Assembly (NCBI GenBank): GCA_964016885.1
Contig: OZ024753.1
Coordinates: forward strand, 12,462,001-12,526,000
Direction: 5' to 3'
DNA length: 64,000 nt
From: Eledone cirrhosa
Lineage: Eukaryota
Positions 236 through 63,564 of this stretch are shown here, piece after piece. The translations under genes and the position numbers were made by a program. The notes below the pieces were generated by a model. The model had not been told where the DNA came from, did not search any database, and saw nothing but the letters and a program-made list of their open reading frames with translations. Numbering within the stretch: the first letter of the stretch is position 1; the number at the start of each line of letters is the position of its first letter.

Positions 236-440
236 CTATTTACTGATCTATAACATACTTGACCTCCTTTTCAACCCAAGAGACATATAAAACATATATA
301 TATGTATATGCAAAAGTTTTATTTAAAGTTGTTGGGTTACAACAAGTAAATATTTTATAACCGATATAAAGCACTCGACAAGTTTTTGGAGTAGATATAC
401 GATATTAAACAAATGGAAACTATATTTATAAAACCATATT

Positions 441-506: not shown

Positions 507-610
507 CAATATATAAGCAGTTTTATAAATAATTTTGACGTACCATAAATCTTAATGGTCGCTTATATTTATGGTACGTCAAAATTATTTATAAAACTGC
601 TTATATATTG

Positions 611-676
611 TATTTTATCTGACGAAGGCATGCCATATTTTTAATATGGTATCCCTGAAATATGTATAATGAAATA
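611..676 (+). ncRNA. Hammerhead ribozyme, family A right arm
   Basis: tattttat CTGACGA aggcatgccatatt ttt aatatggtatccct GAAA tatgta TA atgaaata. Stem I 8 bp, long stem II, minimal stem III, AUA cleavage triplet. Confidence 0.8.
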
Positions 677-1054
677 AATATGGTTTTATAAATATAGTTT
701 CCATTTGTTTAATATCGTATATATATATATATATATGGACGTTTATTTTGTATATGGGTACATCGTATCATTCTGATGTATTTTGGATTTTGACTGAGAT
801 AATCTGGACTCGCATATTTTTGTTAACTACTTGTACATTCTTGCAAGTATTAATTTAGGACATTACCAGAATATAACTTAATGCATATGCAAAACGACTA
901 ATACATTTATTAACGCTCTTCCAACAACTCTGCAATATATCTTAACACTATGACTTACTAAAGTAAACAAATCACTATTCTGATGGCCTCCAAAAGCAAC
1001 GGTCAATTTTTAAAGGGGTACGTCAATGTCTATTTATAAAACTGTTATATATTG

Positions 1055-1200: not shown

Positions 1201-1204
<4 letters not shown>

Positions 1205-1404
1205 TTAATATAGATGAGTTTCTACAGGACTAGAACTTTTTCATTCTTGAGAAATCATCAGGAATCTGCAGATTCAAGTTGATTTCTCAAGAATGAAACA
1301 GTTCTAGTCCTGTAGAATCTCATCTATATTAAAACTTTTATACTCTGCTATGTATTGAGTACCTAACTTACTGTTGTTACCTCAGATTCAACCAGGAATA
1401 ACTT
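1201..1404. mobile_element. Family D palindromic HHR mini-element
   Basis: Inverted arms 1201-1266 and 1271-1336 centred on gaatc-tgca-gattc. Minus-strand HHR at 1218-1266. The plus-arm core is mutated (aagttga). Tail 1337-1404 with TACTC..TTGAGTAC. Confidence 0.75.
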
Positions 1405-1411
1405 ACCTATA

Positions 1412-1467
<56 letters not shown>

Positions 1468-6755: not shown

Positions 6756-6982
6756 TAATCTACTATATAGAAGGTCTCCCTCAAAATATATACACACTTC
6801 AACAGCATTTTAATAAATATTGCCTGTACAGGTAATCAAACTGTGTATACATTTTTGTGGAGACACCCTGTATATACGCTTGTAATGAAAGGGACAATAT
6901 TTAAATCTAAAACTGATTTTTCTACAAGTATAAAATTGAATATTTTCTTTAATATTTTAGGGCCTTAAGAAAGACCCATTTA

Positions 6983-7483
6983 ATGATGAAAGTGGTAGAA
7001 AAGCCAGGAACTACCATAAAATCCCTGATCAGCAGAACATACCCCTTTAAGAAAATCCACTCTACAAATAAGAAATGTGTTATATGTAAAATGAACCCCC
7101 AGATACATTTTAAAAATAGAAATGTAGTCTATAGCATAAGATGTACAGAGGTTACTTGCAGAAACATGACTACAGCATATATAGGTGAAACAGCTCGTAG
7201 CATAGTAGAAGGAATAGAGCAACACTGGGGGGAACTAAAAGGACAAAAGAAAATCCGTTCTGTACTATATGAACATGCCAGACAAAGACATGACGGTAAT
7301 ATAGACAGCATAGAAATTAAAATAATATCCAAACATAGAAATGACCCAACAGGTAGGCAAATCAGAGAAACAACTGAGATAGAACTAAAAAGACCAAAGT
7401 TAAACAGAAAAAATGAATGGAATAACAACAACCATTCCCAAACAAACAATACTGACTTAAGGAAAATACAAATAAATACATAA
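6983..7483 (+). pseudogene. Penelope-like retroelement 3' fragment: GIY-YIG endonuclease
   Basis: KVVEKPG..CVIC..NVVYSIRC..AYIGETAR..EHAR..RQIRE..LNRKNEW are GIY-YIG motifs of PLE type. 5'-truncated, with a degenerate HHR ~220 nt downstream. Confidence 0.85.
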
Positions 7484-7697
7484 ATAAATATTTACAAAGT
7501 TTCAATAACAACTACATATAAACACACAGTAGTAAACAAAGATAGAATACAAAAACAAAAATACATACTCAAACGCGAACACACACACCAAACATTATAC
7601 ACACACTCAAAACGCATGTGCGGAGACAGAGACAAGAAGAAATAAATAAAAATAAAAATGGCGTAGACATACAATACAATAGGGGGAAACATATTAG

Positions 7698-7741
7698 TAC
7701 CACTGATGATGTCGCAGATGTGCAACGAAAGAACTTTGATA
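7698..7741 (+). ncRNA. Degenerate hammerhead in the 3' pLTR of the GIY-YIG PLE
   Basis: tacca CTGATGA t gtcgca gatg tgcaac GAAA gaac TT tgata. One mismatch each in stems I and II. Confidence 0.6.
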
Positions 7742-8350: not shown

Positions 8351-8575
8351 TATGTTGATTTAAAACTTCACTATTCACAAGTGTTTTCTAAGCATCATAT
8401 CATGTATCCCTATTTTATCTGATGAGAACGCAGATATCATCCCATGATGATATTTGTTTTTGAAATGCGCATAATAAAATACTTGGAACTCTTTTAACCA
8501 TCTTTTGATCTTATATTATTTATACTCCAGTCCTACAAACTGTTGAGTGCTACTTATCCGATATTTGCATTGCTT
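8351..8575 (+). mobile_element. Family G HHR mini-element with tail
   Basis: Matches 17461-17625. Has an extra tail with TACTC (8523)..TTGAGTGC (8543). Confidence 0.7.
8411..8481 (+). ncRNA. Hammerhead ribozyme, family G
   Basis: tattttat CTGATGA gaacgcagatatcatc ccat gatgatatttgttttt GAAA tgcgca TA ataaaata. Perfect 8-bp stem I and palindromic UGCGCA stem III. Confidence 0.85.
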
Positions 8576-8603: not shown

Positions 8604-8742
<139 letters not shown>

Positions 8743-17822: not shown

Positions 17823-17990
17823 TAATGAATTTGAAGACTAAAATCCAAAGAAGGCTCGATAAGGAGAAATATATATCATATATATAATAACCGTAGAGCA
17901 AATATATATATGATCTGGCTGTCGAAACGGCCGGAGATCAACCATCAGTATCCTGACTCTTTTCCTATATATATATATATATATATATAT

Positions 17991-18300
17991 GCAAAAGTTC
18001 TATTTAAATTGTTGGGATACACCAAGCAAATATTTTTATAACTGATATAAAGCACTCAACAATTATTTGGAGTAAACATACGATATTAACAAATGGAAAC
18101 TATATTTATAAAACCATATTTATTTCATTATACATATTTCAATGACACCAAGTTAAATTATGCTGTGCTTTCATGAGACAAAATATAATATAGATCAGTT
18201 TACTCTAAGGACCTACCCTTATTGAGTACTTTGCTACTCATTCCTAATTGTAGGACGACTTTGCTTGGCCGCAGCCTAAGCCTTGATTTCACTCAGCTTC
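17991..18300. mobile_element. Family A long arm (minus; core mutated to CUCAUGA) joined to a family J-like tail (plus)
   Basis: 17991-18200 matches 310-520. 18201-18290 (tactctaagg..ccttattgagtac..) resembles the reverse complement of 45195-45290. Confidence 0.6.
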
Positions 18301-18312
18301 CACTTGTATATC

Positions 18313-19365: not shown

Positions 19366-19463
19366 TGAAAAATGGCGTGTTGTGTTGTTGCAAATGTGAT
19401 ATATATATATATATATATATACAATATATTAACAAATGGAAACTATATTTATAAAACCATATT

Positions 19464-19529
19464 TATTTCATTATACATATTTCAAGGGCCACCAGAGCAA
19501 ACTATGGTGTGCTTTCATCAGATAAAATA
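19464..19529 (-). ncRNA. Hammerhead ribozyme, family A
   Basis: UAUUUUAU CUGAUGA aagcaCACCA..UGGUGgccc uu GAAA UAUGUA UA AUGAAAUA. Stem II covaries with the 1055 copy (UACCA/UGGUA). Confidence 0.8.
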
Positions 19530-20779
19530 TAATATAGGTTAGTTTTATAAATAAATATTGACATACCCTTAAAAAATGCAACCATTCTGGTTGGAATCTC
19601 CTGGATAATGGAGTTATTAGATTTATTGTTGGTTTATTATGCAAATTAGTGTTGGAAAGGTTTAAATAACAGTATATTTAAATTAGTATATTTAAATTAA
19701 GCCGTTGGAATAGGGAAAAAAGAAAAAAAGAAAGAATATATTGTATATTTACTCCAATAATGTGTTGAGTGCTTTATATCAGTTATAAAAATATTTAGCT
19801 TGTATCCCAACAAATTAAATATAACCTCTACACATATATATATATGTGTGAGTGTATGTGTGTGCGTGTTTGTGTGTGTATGTGTGTGTGTAGCTTTTGT
19901 GGAAGGGAGGTGGTTGTTTCGTTGAAGCTTATCTCTGTGTACATGCCTAATGAAATATAGAAAAACATAGAAATAATATATATATATATGTATATATATA
20001 TATACACACATATATATATATATACACACGGATCATTGCATGAACAATGTCTAGACCTCTCGGTATTTCTCTCTCTTTCTTTCTGTATATATACACACGC
20101 ACGCATATATATATTATTATACTTTGGGAGGGTCATGTTGCCAATAAGAAACACACGCACCATGCTTCACTCCAATTTATTATAAATTAAATTTATAAAT
20201 TTAAGAATTTATAAATATCCGGTTGGTTGGTTGGTTCCATAACCGGACGGTTGTTCATATATTGTCATAGTTCTTTCGTCACACATTATGTGACCTCTTC
20301 AGTGACTGGGGATTTTTTCTTTGTTTTTGTGCCTCTCCTTTGTTCTGTCCTACGCCATCTTGTTTTTGTGTAACACACAAAAACAACATGACCCTCCCAA
20401 AGCATAACAATATCGGTTTCAACACACGTTTTCAGATAAAGAATATTGCTAAACAAATTCAGAAAAGAAATATATATATATATGTATATGTGCGTGTGTA
20501 AAAGTACAGTTGAAAATAATTTCATTGAAACGAAACTCTCCTCTGTAAACTTATACTTATCCAAGTTTCCACGTAAGAAGTTCTTTCTTAAACGTTAGAA
20601 ATTCCAAAGCAATGATTATACTCATGTACCGCAGCATGCCCACATTACAGCTGTTAAAATATATTAAACCCAAGGGATGTATATATCTGATAGAGAAAAT
20701 GATCTTGACTATATTATATAGAGACATTTGTGGAGGGGAGAAAATTATTTATCTACTATATAAATTGGAAGTGGTCGGA

Positions 20780-22885: not shown

Positions 22886-24639
22886 ATATATACAGCTGTC
22901 GGAAAGTGGAAACAAATATTTTCAACGTGGAAATGATACGAACTTGCGCTGAGATATTTGGTTTTACGTGTATATAATTATTTTCTTCTAATCAGCATAT
23001 GCTTACCGATATTATTGATATTAAACATATGAAGCTAATATGTATGTGATTGATAGGGTCTGTATCTGACCTGACTCGTGGATAAACAACATCAAAACTA
23101 CAGCAGCGCCAATAATATTAAGGGATAATTGATAAAATGATATATGGAGCTTTCTGTATCTGTAATGTTCAAGAAAGCAGAATATATGAATGTGTTATGG
23201 AGAACTGTATTTAGATTCCGTTACTCTCAGTAGAGATCAAAGACATTGTTAGTAAATATTTATTTACATCTAATTTGTCATTTACTTGAATGTAATACTT
23301 GAGATTCGGGGTGAAGTTTGTGGGGAAAGAAAACCGCCATTACGATATCTTTCTTTCATGTAGCTAAACGGAAAAGGAAGTTTAAATAAACTCCCTACGA
23401 TAGCATCATTCTTTAACACGACATTAAGATATGTTTATGTTAGCATGTCAAATCCAAGGTTAATATACATAAAAGTAAGCTTCATAAATTTGCAAACATA
23501 CGAGATTTATGATCTGGAATTCATATTTTACTCATAATTACGACATGCTATTTACGTAGAGTTAATGTTTCCATTATAGATCAGGCGAGGAATTAGCGGC
23601 ATATTAGATGCTGGAAATTTTGAATTTTATAGTTTACATTAGTTTCGCATTATTGCGTAACCCTTTAGCATATACATTGCTCTCTATTTACTATTATATT
23701 TTCATGGTAAAGGCTTTACCTCATATAATTATCTCACATAATATGGAAACTATGAGATTTTGATATTATTTATTTTGAGCACAATACCTTCACATAAGTA
23801 TGAGTGGTCAGTTACAGCCGGTTTGAACAGAAAGAGATGAACATTCTGACCGGATACCACCTGTTTAAATGCTAAAGGGTTAAACTAATATAATTCTAAA
23901 TCTGGGCATTTGTGATGAAGCAACATTTAAAAACAATGAATTATAGGGCTCCCAAAGATAGGATCCAAGTTGACAACTTTCATAACATTAGTCATTATTA
24001 CTAGTCTAAGGTCTAAAGTCTATCACGAGCTCGGAGGCTCAACAGGCCAGTCTTTAACCTGGTTTCCGTGGCATGAAGGACTGGCATCCTGTCCTCACCT
24101 GGACGGGATGCCAGTCCTTCTTAACAAACTGGGTTTGATGAATTCTTTTATAACGCCTCCGAGCAGATATGAGCTGTATTTTGGCTACACATGTAAAACA
24201 AATTGTCATTTGTCATTTGTCTTCGTCTTATCCTTGTTTGACGTCAATCCATTATTTTTGTTGACATCCATCATACAATTGTATTCAATCGGAGAGAAAA
24301 GTGATTGCCAGTCAAAATTATATATAATCCCGCCGAGGTTTACTTTGCCTTTCATCTTTACGGCGTCGATAAAATAAAGTACCATTAATGTACTTGGTAA
24401 TTGATGGCCTTATGCCAAAGTAGAAACAATTATATATATATAAATATATATGTGTGTATGTATGTGTTATGTATTTCCGTAGAAAAGGTAAAGGAAAGAA
24501 GGGTGCTCTATGTGTAGTACAGGGCTATTTAAATATGTAATAAACAACACAGTATAATTATTCCATTACCTAAGGTTTCATGAAATTAGACGATTCTAAC
24601 AGAAACGTCCAGTCTGCTCATCAGATTATATATATATAT

Positions 24640-26310: not shown

Positions 26311-27530
26311 TCTATGTTGATCCTATGGAGGAGAGGAAGGAAAATATGGAGGCGATGTGATGAGGGAAGAACTCTGTACCACTTAAACTGAGGCCAGAGA
26401 TGAGGCGCTGGAGAAAGCGGTTGACAGCTCTGGGTGTAAGGAGAGTTGGATGATCATCAACGAGATCACAAGTAGGAAGAGAAAGGGTTCGAATCAGATC
26501 CAGGGAACAGGGCCCGAGGAGAGGAAGAGGAAATGGCTGGACCATTTTAGGACCCTGCTGGGAGAGTCACCCTCCACAGCCAAGAACAATGGGGAGATCA
26601 TGGGCTGTTTGAGGAACTGGATATTGAGACAGGACACTTCACCAGAGAAGAGCTTCAGAGAGGCAAGAAGAAGATTAAAGAGGGAAAGGCTAATGGAGAA
26701 GATGGAGCGCATCAGAGGTGATGAAGAGGTGTGATTTTGATGATATCATCCTGGGGTTCTGTAAACAGGCACTGGAGAAAGAAGTTGCCCCGAATCAACA
26801 GAGGATCAGTAACATCGTCCCAGTGCCAAAGAAGGGAGACCTCTCTAACACCAACAACTACAGGGGTATGTCACTGACGTCACTTTTGGCAAAGACCCTC
26901 AACAGGATGATTCTTAACAGGATCCAGTCCGAGATACTCAGGGACATCCAGAACGGCTTCAGAGAGGGAAGATCAACCACCAGTCACATTCTGATGCCAA
27001 GGAGGCTATTAAAGGGAGCTAGAGGAAAGAGTCTGACTGTTGTCATGGTTTTCATTGATTTTAGGAAGGCCTTTGATTCTGTGGACCGTCACTGCCTGAT
27101 CAAGATCTTACAGGCTTATGGAATCCCCAAGATAGTGAACCTGATATCACTGCTCTACCAAAGCCTAAGTTATTATACCTGATGGGATGACGGAGTTCTC
27201 TGAGATACTGGCTGAAGTGCTCCAGGGAGATACATTAGCTCCTTACCTTTTTATCATCACAGTGGGCTATTGTAAGCGCCTTGCGCTGGGGAAACACCAG
27301 GACTCTGGCTTCACTGTAGCACTGGCTCAGGGCAGGAGAGTTAAGGCAAAAAAGGAATCGGATGCTGAATTTGTCGACGACATAATTTTGGTGACAAATA
27401 CAGTGAAGGAGGCAGATGAGTTGATGCAGGAGGTGGAGACTGTGTCGATGAGTGTGGGGCTGAGAATGAATGAGATTAAGACGAATTATCTGGTAGAGAA
27501 TATTAAGAAGCCAGTAGAAATTATTATGAT
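26311..27530 (+). pseudogene. RTE-like LINE reverse transcriptase remnant
   Basis: IVPVPKKGDLS..NYRGMSL..QNGFREGRST..FIDFRKAFDSV..QGDTLAPYLF..FVDD. Frameshifted. Confidence 0.9.
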
Positions 27531-27699
27531 AATAAAAGTATGGTTAAACATATACTGTTGAGTGCTTGAAGTCTGTTATATATAAGTCAGCTGATTATAA
27601 ATCGACTAACTCTTTTTCATTGAACATGTGACCTCCACCCATCCCAATGACCACCCTCTCCTACCACCAGAAAAGTTATAAATACCACCATATTACTTG

Positions 27700-27843
27700 G
27701 ACAGTCAGCTTCCTGATGATTTCTCCCGAATCAAACAATACTAGTCCTGTAGAAGACATTTCTATATTAAATATTTATACTCTGCTATGTATTGAGTACC
27801 TTACTTACTGTGGTTACCCCCGATTGAACCCAGGATAAACTTA
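27700..27843 (+). mobile_element. Family D element (HHR with GAAA>CAAA; stem I CUUC/GAAG) with tail
   Basis: cttc CTGATGA tttctcccgaat caaa caatactagtcctg TA gaag. Tail tactctgctatgtattgagtacc. Confidence 0.7.
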
Positions 27844-31002: not shown

Positions 31003-31333
31003 CTCTCTCTCTCTCTCTCTGTCTCTCCCTCTCGTGCTCTATAATCCACTTCTACAGAAAACGCCAGCATCAACAGTTTTTGCAAGAGATGTCAACACGA
31101 ATGGACCTGTTTTTTGTCTCTAAAATTTTTTTTCCAATTCCACCCCGCCTGACCCTTCAATCTTTTTCTAATTTCTCATCCTTTCTTCTGATGATAGACT
31201 AGCGTCCGAAACGTTAACATCCTCCTCTTGCTATTTCAAGCGTTCGCCTAATATATTCCTTCCTTATACTGTATCGATAATGTTGTTATTGCTGTTTACT
31301 TTTGCACACACACACATACTCACACACACACCT

Positions 31334-32538
<1,205 letters not shown>

Positions 32539-32580
32539 GTTTTGCGAGGTTTTTTATATGAAATCGTGTGTCGAAACAGA

Positions 32581-32818
32581 TATTGTTATATTTGGGGAGG
32601 GTCATATTTGCGTAATATTGCCAGAATTAATAACAGAACACACTCACTGTTTGGTTGGTTTTCGCTTCTCGCTGTCTTTTATATATATATATCTGCGATC
32701 TAACTTACTCGGTATATATATATATAAAAGACAGCGAGAAGCGAAAACCAACCAAACAGTGAGTGTGTTCTGTTATTAATTCTGGCAATATTACGCAAAT
32801 ATGACCCTCCCCAAATAT

Positions 32819-32825
<7 letters not shown>
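32581..32825. mobile_element. Family I near-perfect ~110-bp inverted repeat
   Basis: Arms 32581-32692 and 32712-32825. Related single copies at 7830-7925, 20110-20160 and 20375-20420. Confidence 0.75.
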
Positions 32826-33352: not shown

Positions 33353-33548
33353 ATAACAAAGGAAATGTGGCAAGGAACCAGATGGACCATAACGCACCAG
33401 AGTACTCAGTACTTAGAGTAGTAGAGTGGGAAATAGGAAAAAGTATGACCTCGACGGCAGAGATCAAGTCGTTTCGATGGCTATTTCTGTCCAGAAATAT
33501 CCGTCGAAACGGCTTGAGCTCTGCCGTCGAGGTCGTACTTTTTCCTAT
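33353..33548. mobile_element. Family C palindromic element (3' half of an HHR mirrored)
   Basis: Palindrome 33433-33548 with GAAA-CGGC-ttgagctct-GCCG-TC. Tail 33353-33432. Confidence 0.75.
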
Positions 33549-34138: not shown

Positions 34139-34187
<49 letters not shown>

Positions 34188-34242
34188 CAAATGAATGAAT
34201 GGATGAAGGAGTTACAAGCCGTTAAAACAAGTCCTTTATATA

Positions 34243-34282
34243 GCTCTTAAACGTGTTTCGCCTACAGGGGCTCTTCAGAGGC
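34243..34282 (-). ncRNA. Degenerate hammerhead in an inverted segment 5' of the PLE RT
   Basis: Minus strand: CUGAAGA GCCC cugu AGGC GAAA cacguu UA agagc. Stems I and III are imperfect. Confidence 0.5.
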
Positions 34283-34289
34283 AGAAGTT

Positions 34290-35690
34290 CTTCTCTCAAG
34301 TTTATACCGTTACCAAGCAGAAAAACTCACCTTAAGCAACTTATTGCTGCGACTAATTCGTTTATACGTAGAGTCACATGGAAGGCCTGCCATATGGACA
34401 AGGATGCAGATAAACAACCGGTGCTTAAAGAAAGGTATAGATTTAACACCTACAAGAACCCTCCGCATAACACACTGCTGGATACCTTTGAGGAGGACCT
34501 ACTCAATATGATCAAGAACGTCAAGTTTAAGAATAGGCGTAAATGTACTAATGCTGTCCTGAACTCTCTGGACACCCTGATCACTAAAATAAAAAAAATG
34601 ATAAGGGCATATTTGTAGCCTCTGATAAAACCAAGAACCTGTATAAATTGGATGTAAGTAGATATAGACAATTGATCTCAAATGAGCTGAGCAAAAAATG
34701 CAACCCCTCCCCCCACACACACACACCTAGTAGCACACTCAAGGACATAAACAAAGGAGGTAAGCACATTGTAACTAACTTAGATATAGATAAATACACA
34801 GACCCATACTTACCTATGACACCAACATTCTCTCTTAAGGATCACAAATGTAACTTTAATGAAAACCCCTCTGTTAGATTAATATGCCCCTCCACTTCGG
34901 ATATAGGTAGAATTAACAAAGTGATCCTTGATAGGATAATACCCGTACTTAATAGTAACGCTAAGGTCCGCCTTTGGAACAATACGGACCAGGTCATCAA
35001 ATGGTTCACAAATATTCGAGATAAGGATTCTTTAATATTTATTCAGTTCGACATGGATAATTACTATGCTTCTATCTCCCCTATAATCCTAAATAAGGCC
35101 CTCATCTTAGCTAGATCTAATACTAGTTCAACTAAAAAAGAAATAGACATAGTACTTGCAGCGAGACGAACCATCATATACTTCGAAGGCTCATACGGGA
35201 CCCGAGCCAACCGTCCTGATAATTTCGATGTCACGATGGGCTCGAGTGACTCGACACAGGTAACCGACCTAGTTGGAATATACCTCCTACATAAGGTCAG
35301 GGATGATATCCCCGTACTACAAGGAGTTGTAAATAGGGACGACGCCCTATTTACTGTTAGGATTCACAACCCCCGTAGGACAGAAAACCTTAATAAACAT
35401 ATACATAAGTTATTTAAAACGTACGGCCTCTCAGTTACAATAGACCATAACCATAACATAGTTAACTTCTTAGATGTAACATTAGAGTTAGATACTGGCC
35501 TATACAGACCGTACGACAGGCCGGGTGAGGTCCTGTCTTACATTAAGAAAGCTTCTAACTACTCTAAATCTGCACTTAACTCTATAGTGAGTAGCATCTC
35601 ACACAGAATCTTCAGGCTGTCGGCCAACGAAAACGTCTTTGATTCTTTATCTCACCTCTGTATGCCTCTCTTACGAAACCTGAACCCTAT
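34290..35690 (+). pseudogene. Penelope-like retroelement reverse transcriptase (possibly Naiad-type), frameshifted and 3'-truncated
   Basis: FIRRVTWKA..FEEDLLNMIKNVKF..SDKTKNLY..VRLICP..FIQFDMDNYY..FDVTMGS..DLVGIYLL..RDDAL..NFLDVTL..YRPY. Frameshift near 34600. Confidence 0.88.
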
Positions 35691-35753
<63 letters not shown>

Positions 35754-35754
35754 T

Positions 35755-36149
35755 AAAAAAGGAATTCCAACTCTGTCTAATTTACTCTTTTTATTTACAA
35801 TCCTTTAACATTATAAATATTATAATGAAATAGTATGGTAGAATATTAAATGTTAATTGAACAAGTACTTTCATGCTTTCACAATCTTCAGGGTCATATT
35901 CAGTGGTGACAGTTAAGTTTGCAATTTTCAACAGTTAAAAATTGCAAACTTGACTGTCACCACTGAATATGAACCCGAAGATTGTGAAAGCATGGAAGTA
36001 CTTGTTCAATTAACATTTAATATTCTACCATACTATTTCATTATATCATTATAATTTTAAAGGATTGTAAATAAAACGAGTAAATCAGACAAAGTTGGAA
36101 TTCCTTTTATTACTATAATCTTGTATACACAATCATACACACTCGTGTA

Positions 36150-36150
<1 letters not shown>
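35755..36150. mobile_element. Family F palindromic HHR mini-element
   Basis: ~170-bp arms centred ~35933. Minus-strand HHR 35858-35896: CUGAAGA-uUGUgaaaGCAu-GAAA-GUAC-UU-GUUCA. Tail on the right arm. Confidence 0.8.
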
Positions 36151-36208
<58 letters not shown>

Positions 36209-37109: not shown

Positions 37110-37493
37110 TAACAAAGGAATTGTGGTAAGGAAACAGATGGACCATAACGCACCAGAGTACTCAATACTTAGAGTAGTAGAGTGGGAATAGGAAAAAGTA
37201 TGACCCCCACCCCACGGCAGAGCTCAAGCCGTTTCGGCGGGTATTTCTGGACTGAAATAGCCGTCGAAACGGCTTGAGCTCTGCCGTCGGGGTCATACTT
37301 TTTCCTATATATATATATATATATATATATATAATGAAGGAAATGTGGTAAGGAACTATGTGGACCATAACGCACCAAAGTACTCAATACTTAGGGTAGT
37401 AGAGTGGGTAATAGGAACGAGTAGGACCCCGACGGCTGAGCTCAAGCCGTCGGTCGAAACGGCTTGAGCTCAGCCGTCGGGGTCCTACTCGTT

Positions 37494-44969: not shown

Positions 44970-45165
44970 GTTATTCCGGGTTGAATCGGAGGTAACCACA
45001 GTAAGTAAGGTACTCAATACATTGCAGAGTATAAAAGTTTTAATATAGATGAGATTCTACAGGACTAGAACTGTTTCATTCTTTAGAAATCATCAGGAAT
45101 CTCAGTGATTCCTGATGATTTCTAAAGAATGAAACAGTTCTAGTCCTGTAGAATCTCATCTATAT
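44970..45165. mobile_element. Family D perfect palindrome carrying two intact divergent hammerheads
   Basis: HHRs at 45053-45101 (minus) and 45107-45155 (plus): GAUUC CUGAUGA uUUC uaaa GAAu GAAA CAG uucuaguc CUG UA GAAUC. 5-nt spacer. Confidence 0.85.
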
Positions 45166-45192: not shown

Positions 45193-45505
45193 TTTAGTAC
45201 AGCATAATCGAGGCTCTGACTACAGCTAAGCTAACGAATGCAATCGGGGTGTGCAGCTAAGCACTCAATAAGGTACATTACCTTAGAGTTATAACATTAC
45301 GTTTAGACAGCTTTGCAAATTGAAGACAGCGACCGATAGGCGAGCCGCAGTGACCAAAGAGACGAACAAACTGAACTCAGGAAAATATGACAAACCTGGA
45401 CCGTCGCGTTGATACTGTATATAACATACAATATATAAAATTCATAATATATATAAAATATATAACATACAATATCTCCGCTAGGTTTCTGTAAATCCGA
45501 AAAAA
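45193..45505 (-). mobile_element. Family J repeat (shares the tail hairpin; no HHR recognised)
   Basis: Diverged copy at 50018-50333. The minus strand has actc-taaggtaatgtacctta-ttgagtgc. Confidence 0.6.
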
Positions 45506-54816: not shown

Positions 54817-54916
54817 ATTAGAATACTGGAGCGTGTTTGAGTCAAACACCCTCTTCGTATTATAGAAATGACAGTAAAAGGTATAGCTCAATGCAGTTAA
54901 ACAGAGCCAATAAATT

Positions 54917-55731: not shown

Positions 55732-55924
55732 ATAGGAACAAGTAAGACCCCGACGGCTGAGCTCAAGCCGTTTCGACGGCTAATTCTGGACTGAATTAGC
55801 CGTCGAAACGGCTTGAGCTCAGCCGTCGGAGTCTTACTTGTTCCTATTACCCATTCTACTACCCTAAGTATTGAGTACTTTGGTGCGTTGTGGTCCACCT
55901 GGTTCCTTACCACATTTCCTTCGT

Positions 55925-63313: not shown

Positions 63314-63564
63314 AGTTTATCCCGGGTTCAATCGGGGGTAGCCACAGTAAATAAGGTACTCAATATAGAAGCAGAGTATAAATATTTAATATAGAAATGT
63401 AGAAGCCATACCTATATATATATATATATATAGGAACAAGTATTACCCCAACGGCAGAGCTCAAAGGGGTCATTCTTGTTCCTATTACCCACTCTGCTAC
63501 CCTAAGTATTGAGTACTTTGGTGCGTTATGTTCCATCTGGTTCCTTACCACACATCCTTCGTTA
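63314..63564. mobile_element. Family D tail (minus) and a family C element with deleted centre
   Basis: 63314-63400 is the reverse complement of 27757-27843. 63431-63564 has family C arms plus tail. Confidence 0.7.

Follow-up and report, generated by a model that had tools for sequence, protein, structure and literature searches.

We present here a short bulged hairpin that occurs in tandem, as a first (H1) and a second (H2) copy, at the pLTR-ORF junctions of Hydra-clade Penelope-like elements (PLEs), with inserted copies ending just 5′ of one hairpin or the other. From the positions of these ends and the covariation of the stem, the hairpin is likely (probability about two in three) to be an RNA binding site that positions the reverse transcriptase (RT) internally on its template. 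How PLEs choose an internal start, and why they have a tail, inverted arms, and tandems, stayed open even after the first in vitro system, as reported in PMC11167929. A short, duplicated, clade-wide structure that predicts both ends leads to a direct mutational test, offers a defined RNA-protein target for structural study of the closest relatives of telomerase RT, and provides an annotation rule by which H1 and H2 show where a Hydra element truly ends and where its ORF starts. The hairpin pair would explain the long-puzzling tail, and the motif recurs from corals to Eledone cirrhosa, whose genome carries roughly 130,000 strict-pattern matches in excess of control.

The bulged hairpin and its carriers

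The window analyzed is a 64,000-nucleotide stretch of the E. cirrhosa assembly GCA_964016885.1 (3.0 Gb; contig OZ024753.1, positions 12,462,001 to 12,526,000). It is AT-rich animal DNA, rich in (TA)n and in short inverted repeats with minimal hammerhead cores. A first-pass annotation had reported a tail hairpin, ACTC pairing with GAGT, shared by five families. All of the plus- and minus-strand sites that it named are present, plus-strand sites starting at the ACTC, and four further minus-strand sites were found (Table 1). The window contains 13 motif matches versus a mean of 0.15 (maximum, 2) per shuffle in 100 dinucleotide shuffles. Genome-wide, there are 152,822 matches versus 21,476 for the reversed pattern, the matches being transposon copies and not independent events. 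The motif strand is sense to the hammerhead and the ORF. Below, "short" denotes the tailless end of a copy and "long" the tailed end. A non-LTR reverse transcriptase fragment at 26694-27561 (RVT_1, E value of 7e-16) is unrelated to the hairpin.

Table 1. Hairpins, arms, and related features in the window (window coordinates; "first pass" marks sites named by the first-pass annotation and "further" marks additional sites)
Feature	Position	Strand	Remarks
H1, family A, tailed arm	371..392	-	Hammerhead core 457-498; first pass
Tailless A arm	559..720	+	Hammerhead core 619-660; end in (TA)n just before H1 position
Inverted tailless D arm	1201..1268	-	Minimal hammerhead core 1239-1261; end 5 nt before expected H1 start
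Family D tail	1337..1413	+	From short to long end; meets (TA)n at 1414
H1, family D	1342..1362	+	ACTC / TGC-loop-GTA / TT bulge / GAGT-AC; first pass
Control without hairpin in tail, family K	6953..7730	+	GIY-YIG end and hammerhead; Neptune-type
H1, family G	8524..8550	+	Hammerhead core 8419-8465; long end near 8606; first pass
H1, family A	18052..18073	-	First pass
H1, family J	18202..18229	+	5′-truncated copy, head-to-head with A arm; first pass
H1, family A	19751..19772	+	Partner tailless arm 19412-19650 (-) extends far further 5′; first pass
H1 variant, another hammerhead family	24503..24525	-	GCCC/GAGC, TA bulge
H1, family D	27779..27799	+	First pass
H1, family C	33402..33427	-	One mismatch
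Inverted tailless arm of RT fragment 34244..35700	about 34186-34290	-	
Broken Hydra-clade RT fragment	34244..35700	+	About 70% identity to 927-aa full-length ORF elsewhere
H1, family C	37158..37183	-	Further
H1, family C	37380..37405	-	Further
H1, family D, tailed arm	45010..45030	-	Tailless arm end at 45164 (+); further
H1, family J	45261..45289	-	First pass
H1, family E	54886..54907	-	GCTC/GAGC form
H1, family C	55853..55878	+	One mismatch
H1, D-type copy	63356..63377	-	Further
H1, family C	63491..63516	+	Long end 63565; first pass

The motif is not a plain hairpin; it has the form RCTC-[covarying stem-loop]-UY bulge-GAGYRC, with a 3′ bulge of 2 nt (mostly UU or UC, also UA). A plain hairpin with a U/U mismatch was ruled out by a register test of 87 matches, in which the upper stem averages 3.1 bp with a bulge of 2 versus 0.0 to 0.8 bp in other registers. 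Covariation was assessed in related elements, at 89 loci on metagenome and MAG contigs, searched with the anchors RCTC..GAGYRC alone, which gave 151 sense versus 21 antisense matches. Pairing at a bulge of 2 is found in 90 of 101 non-redundant sense motifs (other registers, 6, 5, 19, and 28), a set that contains some chance matches inside ORFs and for which pairing was not required for inclusion. The bulge is TT in 62, TC in 17, and TA in 12 of these. The first upper pair is C-G in 55 and U-A in 30, and the next two positions show all four Watson-Crick types. At each of the three positions, the observed pairing was reached by 0 of 5,000 shuffles, under a null that ignores kinship. The lower stem occurs as GCTC/GAGC, ACTC/GAGT, TCTC/GAGA, and GCAC/GTGC, and the unpaired 3′ RC(T) is kept across motifs. 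A 50-row alignment is 98% paired, with 56 two-sided changes; because its rows were hand-picked, the count among the 101 motifs is the unbiased test. Register and shuffle tests thus bear out the covariation of the ACTC/GAGT stem that the first pass had proposed to look for. The covaried form suspected in family E is present as a GCTC/GAGC variant, but its sequence is GCTC..TTGAGC and not TCGAGC.

Folding energies are weak (z, -0.2 to -2.4) and the stems thermodynamically marginal; the predicted minimum-energy fold departs from the motif fold in families C and A and shows a 1-nt-bulge register in D. Such folding would fit an element that is stabilized by protein. Rfam 15 models gave no window matches at gathering score and none at an E value of ≤1 in four junction loci, a search of limited sensitivity that missed the minimal hammerheads as well.

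The families that carry the motif had been taken as unrelated. A, C, and G are instead pLTRs of Hydra-clade PLEs, a single clade, with ORFs that are 37 to 53% identical. Through the RT fragment at 34244-35700, we identified 927-aa ORFs of a further family, N1, whose 3′ UTR contains a degenerate hammerhead, the short end, a GCTC/GAGC motif with a 55-nt loop, and the long end. RWK, DKT, and CxCX5C define the Hydra clade as described by Craig et al. (2021; PMC8557442). The N-terminal RWK motif reads RVRWK in N1, RLRWR in C, RIRWR in A, and RLRWT in G; DKG is altered to DKT (SDKT) in all four; and the CxCX5C linker precedes a C-terminal GIY-YIG in N1, C, and G, the A copy being frameshifted before the linker. 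These shared features and the 37 to 53% identity mark N1, A, C, and G as related families whose pLTRs have diverged. In a tree built without published Hydra reference proteins and with an arbitrary root, the E. cirrhosa ORFs group together (94/71) among outside relatives, far from family K. Family D is probably also a Hydra-clade pLTR; its one candidate link to a Hydra ORF is a junction at L287, where the start of a broken, Hydra-like ORF is present. A Neptune identity for the motif-bearing ORFs was considered and dropped on clade definitions. A Pfam search of the PLE proteins gave no matches, and no relatives were found in viral contigs.

The hammerhead lies in the pLTR on the sense strand, with a canonical minimal core in A, D, and G and a degenerate one in C and N1. 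In N1 and C, both abundant, the core reads CTTGAGAAG instead of CTGANGA (pLTRs L102 and L412; window 37230-37270); canonical self-cleavage may thus be dispensable while the hairpins are kept. Read by eye, the published consensi Hydra-2_Amil, Hydra-1_Ajap (two copies), and Hydra-2_Ajap, from coral and sea cucumber, contain the motif, Hydra-1_Crog has degenerate forms, and Hydra-1_Amil stops before the motif; none was clear in Hydra-1_Obim.

Several side observations were made in these elements. Several bacterial MAG contigs contain Hydra-clade animal retroelements (L198-L209), probably through host contamination. A 58-bp satellite of at least 8 kb is made solely of the family C hairpin region (G000:C1:14234976-14242868). 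The longest family D copies have in common a long internal (TA/TG)n microsatellite in the 3′ UTR, about 450 nt before the hammerhead (L290-L319). The H1-containing tail is duplicated or triplicated in tandem in D copies L240, L241, and L242, and L032 contains three tandem repeats of a ~3-kb unit that includes an inverted element of family D.

Twin hairpins, copy ends, and inverted pairs

The first pass was right that tails contain a hairpin, but it had only the first of two. At pLTR-ORF junctions the order is hammerhead, 48 to 67 nt, H1, 55 to 164 nt, H2, about 13 to 26 nt, and AUG. The positioning idea predicted a second hairpin just 3′ of the tailed end, and this held for A, C, G, N1, and one D copy. 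The H1-H2 spacing is 78 nt in C, 90 nt in G, 91 to 92 nt in A, and 164 nt in N1. Searches for H2 gave 158 matches in A and 270 in G versus 0 for the reversed control in each; a C junction with H2 was found at locus L211, and Hydra ORFs follow H2 in the junction loci read for A, C, and G. In the D copy at L287, H2 and the broken ORF start lie behind a (TA) run between the end and H2. Three of four D searches returned no junction, their hits being chiefly duplicated tails or nested copies. For J, a junction search had 0 matches, and no H2 was found. Junctions of outside elements contain 38 tandem motif pairs (some redundant) spaced 55 to 83 nt apart, with H1 48 to 67 nt past the hammerhead GAAA and H2 3 to 40 nt before an ATG. 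Of the 34 outside junctions in which a hammerhead is present, two strict copies occur in 25, one in 5, and none in 4; recognizable variants are seen in most of the exceptions. Tandem N1 copies continue past the short and long ends into the next ORF, and because the element runs past both ends in junction copies, both ends are internal to the template. H2 remains only in more-than-unit copies and is missing from the ordinary inserted copy.

Copy ends were surveyed in 207 copies anchored 5′ of H1, drawn from 1.06 Mb of contiguous sequence and 49 loci picked by body or RT. A clean TA junction was found in 174, while 6 run through H2 and 27 are unclear. The 174 comprise 85 short ends, 86 long ends, and 3 in between. 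Short ends lie at -12 to +2 nt from H1 in 84 of 85 cases (mode, -5), and long ends lie at -9 to 0 nt from H2 in 53 of the 55 cases for which a reference H2 was available, as it was not for the 31 D ends; most ends are 2 to 12 nt 5′ of H1 or 3 to 7 nt 5′ of H2. In other animals, 14 of 16 ends are ≤12 nt 5′ of H1 or H2. Ends scattered independently of the hairpin would have told against the original proposal; the ends observed are tightly tied to it. For contigs of one outside DNA sample, depth (which is not copy number) steps down at both hairpins of an A junction, and loose (TA)n ends occur at H1.

The tailless arms had been described as stopping at a TAT or TATA and running straight into (TA)n. 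Arms of A (720), C (33548 and 37308), G (17626), and D (45164) do stop 5′ of the motif and pass into (TA)n. However, the D arm at 1201 ends in AAAACT with 1 nt of homology, and the short arm of E adjoins only ATAT and another element.

Among 85 head-to-head pairs, 55 join a tailed to a tailless arm, none joins two tailed arms, and none joins two tailless arms; the remainder have an unclassed arm (27) or a read-through arm (3), and a few pairs are segmental duplicates. At window 17975-18310, a tailed A arm (-) meets a 5′-truncated tailed J arm (+), the J tail at 18202, with no TA run. This fusion may have arisen by template switching from one family to another or by deletion afterward; were it a single event, it would be a tailed-plus-tailed exception across families.

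Neptune-type family K served as a control. It has the linker CX2-5CxxC (CTNRKCIIC) in a 1,176-aa frame of Neptune/Nematis type, and its ends form two TA-joined clusters about 43 to 46 nt apart (22 and 11 of 43 ends). No motif was found in K tails and junctions, nor in several other hammerhead families in the sequence examined (window 35749-36200 and 31188-31320; L280:942). The motif is therefore specific to a clade and not general to hammerhead-family tails; since K has two internal ends without it, the hairpin is not needed for a two-end pattern in general. By eye, a weak 3-bp stem with a 5-nt loop lies a few bases 3′ of each main K end (L404, minus strand; window 32505-32825), and one of these loops reads ACACA, which recalls the AC-rich stem-loop of the anole element discussed below.

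How the hairpins may set the ends

We take each hairpin to be a predicted binding site for one RT subunit. In the mechanism that we propose, one junction-reading RNA, tandem or circular, would bind two RT-endonuclease subunits, one per hairpin. The endonuclease would cut (TA)n, and each DNA end would prime one subunit just 5′ of its hairpin, with 0 to 6 nt of TA pairing selecting the exact start base. The two cDNAs would copy the same upstream RNA and then join head-to-head. A hairpin that sets a start would never itself be copied, so the tail would equal the H1-H2 spacing, and the confinement of H2 to more-than-unit copies would explain why a tandem is needed for full mobility. A circular template was suggested earlier (PMC4209133); the position of H1 and H2, shortly 3′ of the hammerhead, would suit it. 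Copies of D and G show no cluster of 5′ truncation points immediately 3′ of the hammerhead core, and the core is retained in most copies of D, G, and A; with cleavage sites mapped only approximately, this disfavors cleaved linear RNA as the sole template. We hold this fuller scheme, a two-site RNA ruler in which twin hairpins on one RNA (probably circular) recruit an RT dimer and both (TA)n ends are primed at once, only tentatively, at somewhat less than even odds from the sequence patterns above. If true, one step would yield the tail, the obligatory tailed-plus-tailless inverted arms, and the tandem requirement, and the 25-nt element could be portable, directing a telomerase-related RT to start anywhere inside an RNA.

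Three other accounts were weighed. If the hairpins were RNA 3′-end processing signals, with cutting or termination just 5′ of them followed by end-initiated TPRT, the genomic geometry would be identical, and for the anole element RNA-seq read ends are reported to match the start sites (PMC11167929). Two independent RNA species, however, should also make pairs of two long or two short arms, which are absent (0 of 55), and the anole protein, from a different clade, is described as starting internally on uncut RNA and requiring RNA 3′ of the start (PMC11167929); we consider processing unlikely. That the element acts instead as single-stranded DNA, either as an endonuclease recognition hairpin or as a block to the polymerase within the cDNA that halts fold-back synthesis of the second strand just before H1, is very unlikely. 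In its favor, either strand can form the lower stem with Watson-Crick pairs, and counts of G-U versus A-C pairs pick no strand across outside families (13 versus 10), favoring the sense strand (38 versus 5) only in non-independent copies of this genome. The Drosophila virilis tail was reported, according to PMC11167929, to be required for the endonuclease to recognize DNA, and the two arms reach similarly far 5′ in 37 of 55 pairs. Yet H2 marks the long end while missing from the inserted copy, copies with ORF sequence also close in tailless ends, and in 15 of 55 pairs the tailless arm extends >15 nt beyond the tailed arm on the 5′ side, a shape that simple fold-back could not have given those pairs.

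The least probable account is that TA microhomology alone picks the ends, the hairpins serving translational control of the AUG or hammerhead gating and lying beside AT-rich linkers by chance. An ATG does follow H2 within 3 to 40 nt, a TAT or ATA lies ≤15 nt 5′ of 69 of 95 motifs versus 39 of 101 downstream, and TA homology averages 2.2 nt at short ends and 2.7 nt at long ends, above the null of 0.7 to 1.6 nt. Against it, the long ends track H2 as the spacing goes from 78 to 164 nt, and TA tracts as good or better (5 to 9 nt), including longer ones upstream and inside tails, go unused. Homology is only 0 to 1 nt at 37 of the 85 short junctions and at 19 of the 86 long ones, although single-copy references may undercount it. 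These 56 of 171 clustered ends also fail to support an obligatory annealing of the nicked (TA)n end to UAU(A), as the first pass had envisaged; with TA homology enriched but often 0 to 1 nt, annealing would be secondary.

Comparison with known systems

Hydra-clade PLEs as described in PMC8557442 share with the present elements RWK, DKT, CxCX5C, the C-terminal GIY-YIG, and a sense hammerhead, and also (TA)n targets, partial tandems, inverted 5′-truncated arms, and an optional tail. The words "hairpin" and "stem-loop" are absent from the main text of that paper, which ascribes the tail to endonuclease resolution; tails are 55 to 164 nt here versus 30 to 40 nt there. No description of the motif was found in the literature searched, which did not extend to subscription papers or Repbase notes.

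For Poseidon PAc of the green anole, Frangieh et al. (2024; PMC11167929) report internal RT starts at two sites bounding the tail, a requirement for RNA 3′ of the starts, extension of both strands, and a predicted dimer. By that published description, PAc starts lie at an AC-rich stem-loop inside the ORF, without target homology, and no repeated conserved element is described; in the present elements, each start is placed 5′ of its own copy of a conserved bulged stem, which occurs twice in the 5′ leader, and TA homology is partial.

The telomerase TBE and the Tetrahymena TRE, as described in PMC5855555, are RNA elements beside an internal template that are thought to position a TERT-related RT. 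The TBE is 5′ of the template and stops copying (PMC5855555), whereas the present hairpins are 3′ of the starts, on the TRE side. By this position, and because tailed copies include H1, the hairpin does not behave as a template boundary element. Unlike the telomerase elements, it is duplicated and copying runs for kilobases; the likeness is an analogy. In hepadnavirus epsilon and the R2 3′ UTR, structured cis RNA both recruits the RT and determines where it starts. Epsilon, a bulged stem, templates a protein-primed start within the bulge, and R2 starts at the RNA 3′ end. Unlike in either, the start proposed here would be outside and 5′ of the stem and DNA-primed. Internal initiation at two sites is already known; what appears to be new is a bulged stem, duplicated and found clade-wide, from which both ends can be predicted, together with the strict tailed-plus-tailless rule.
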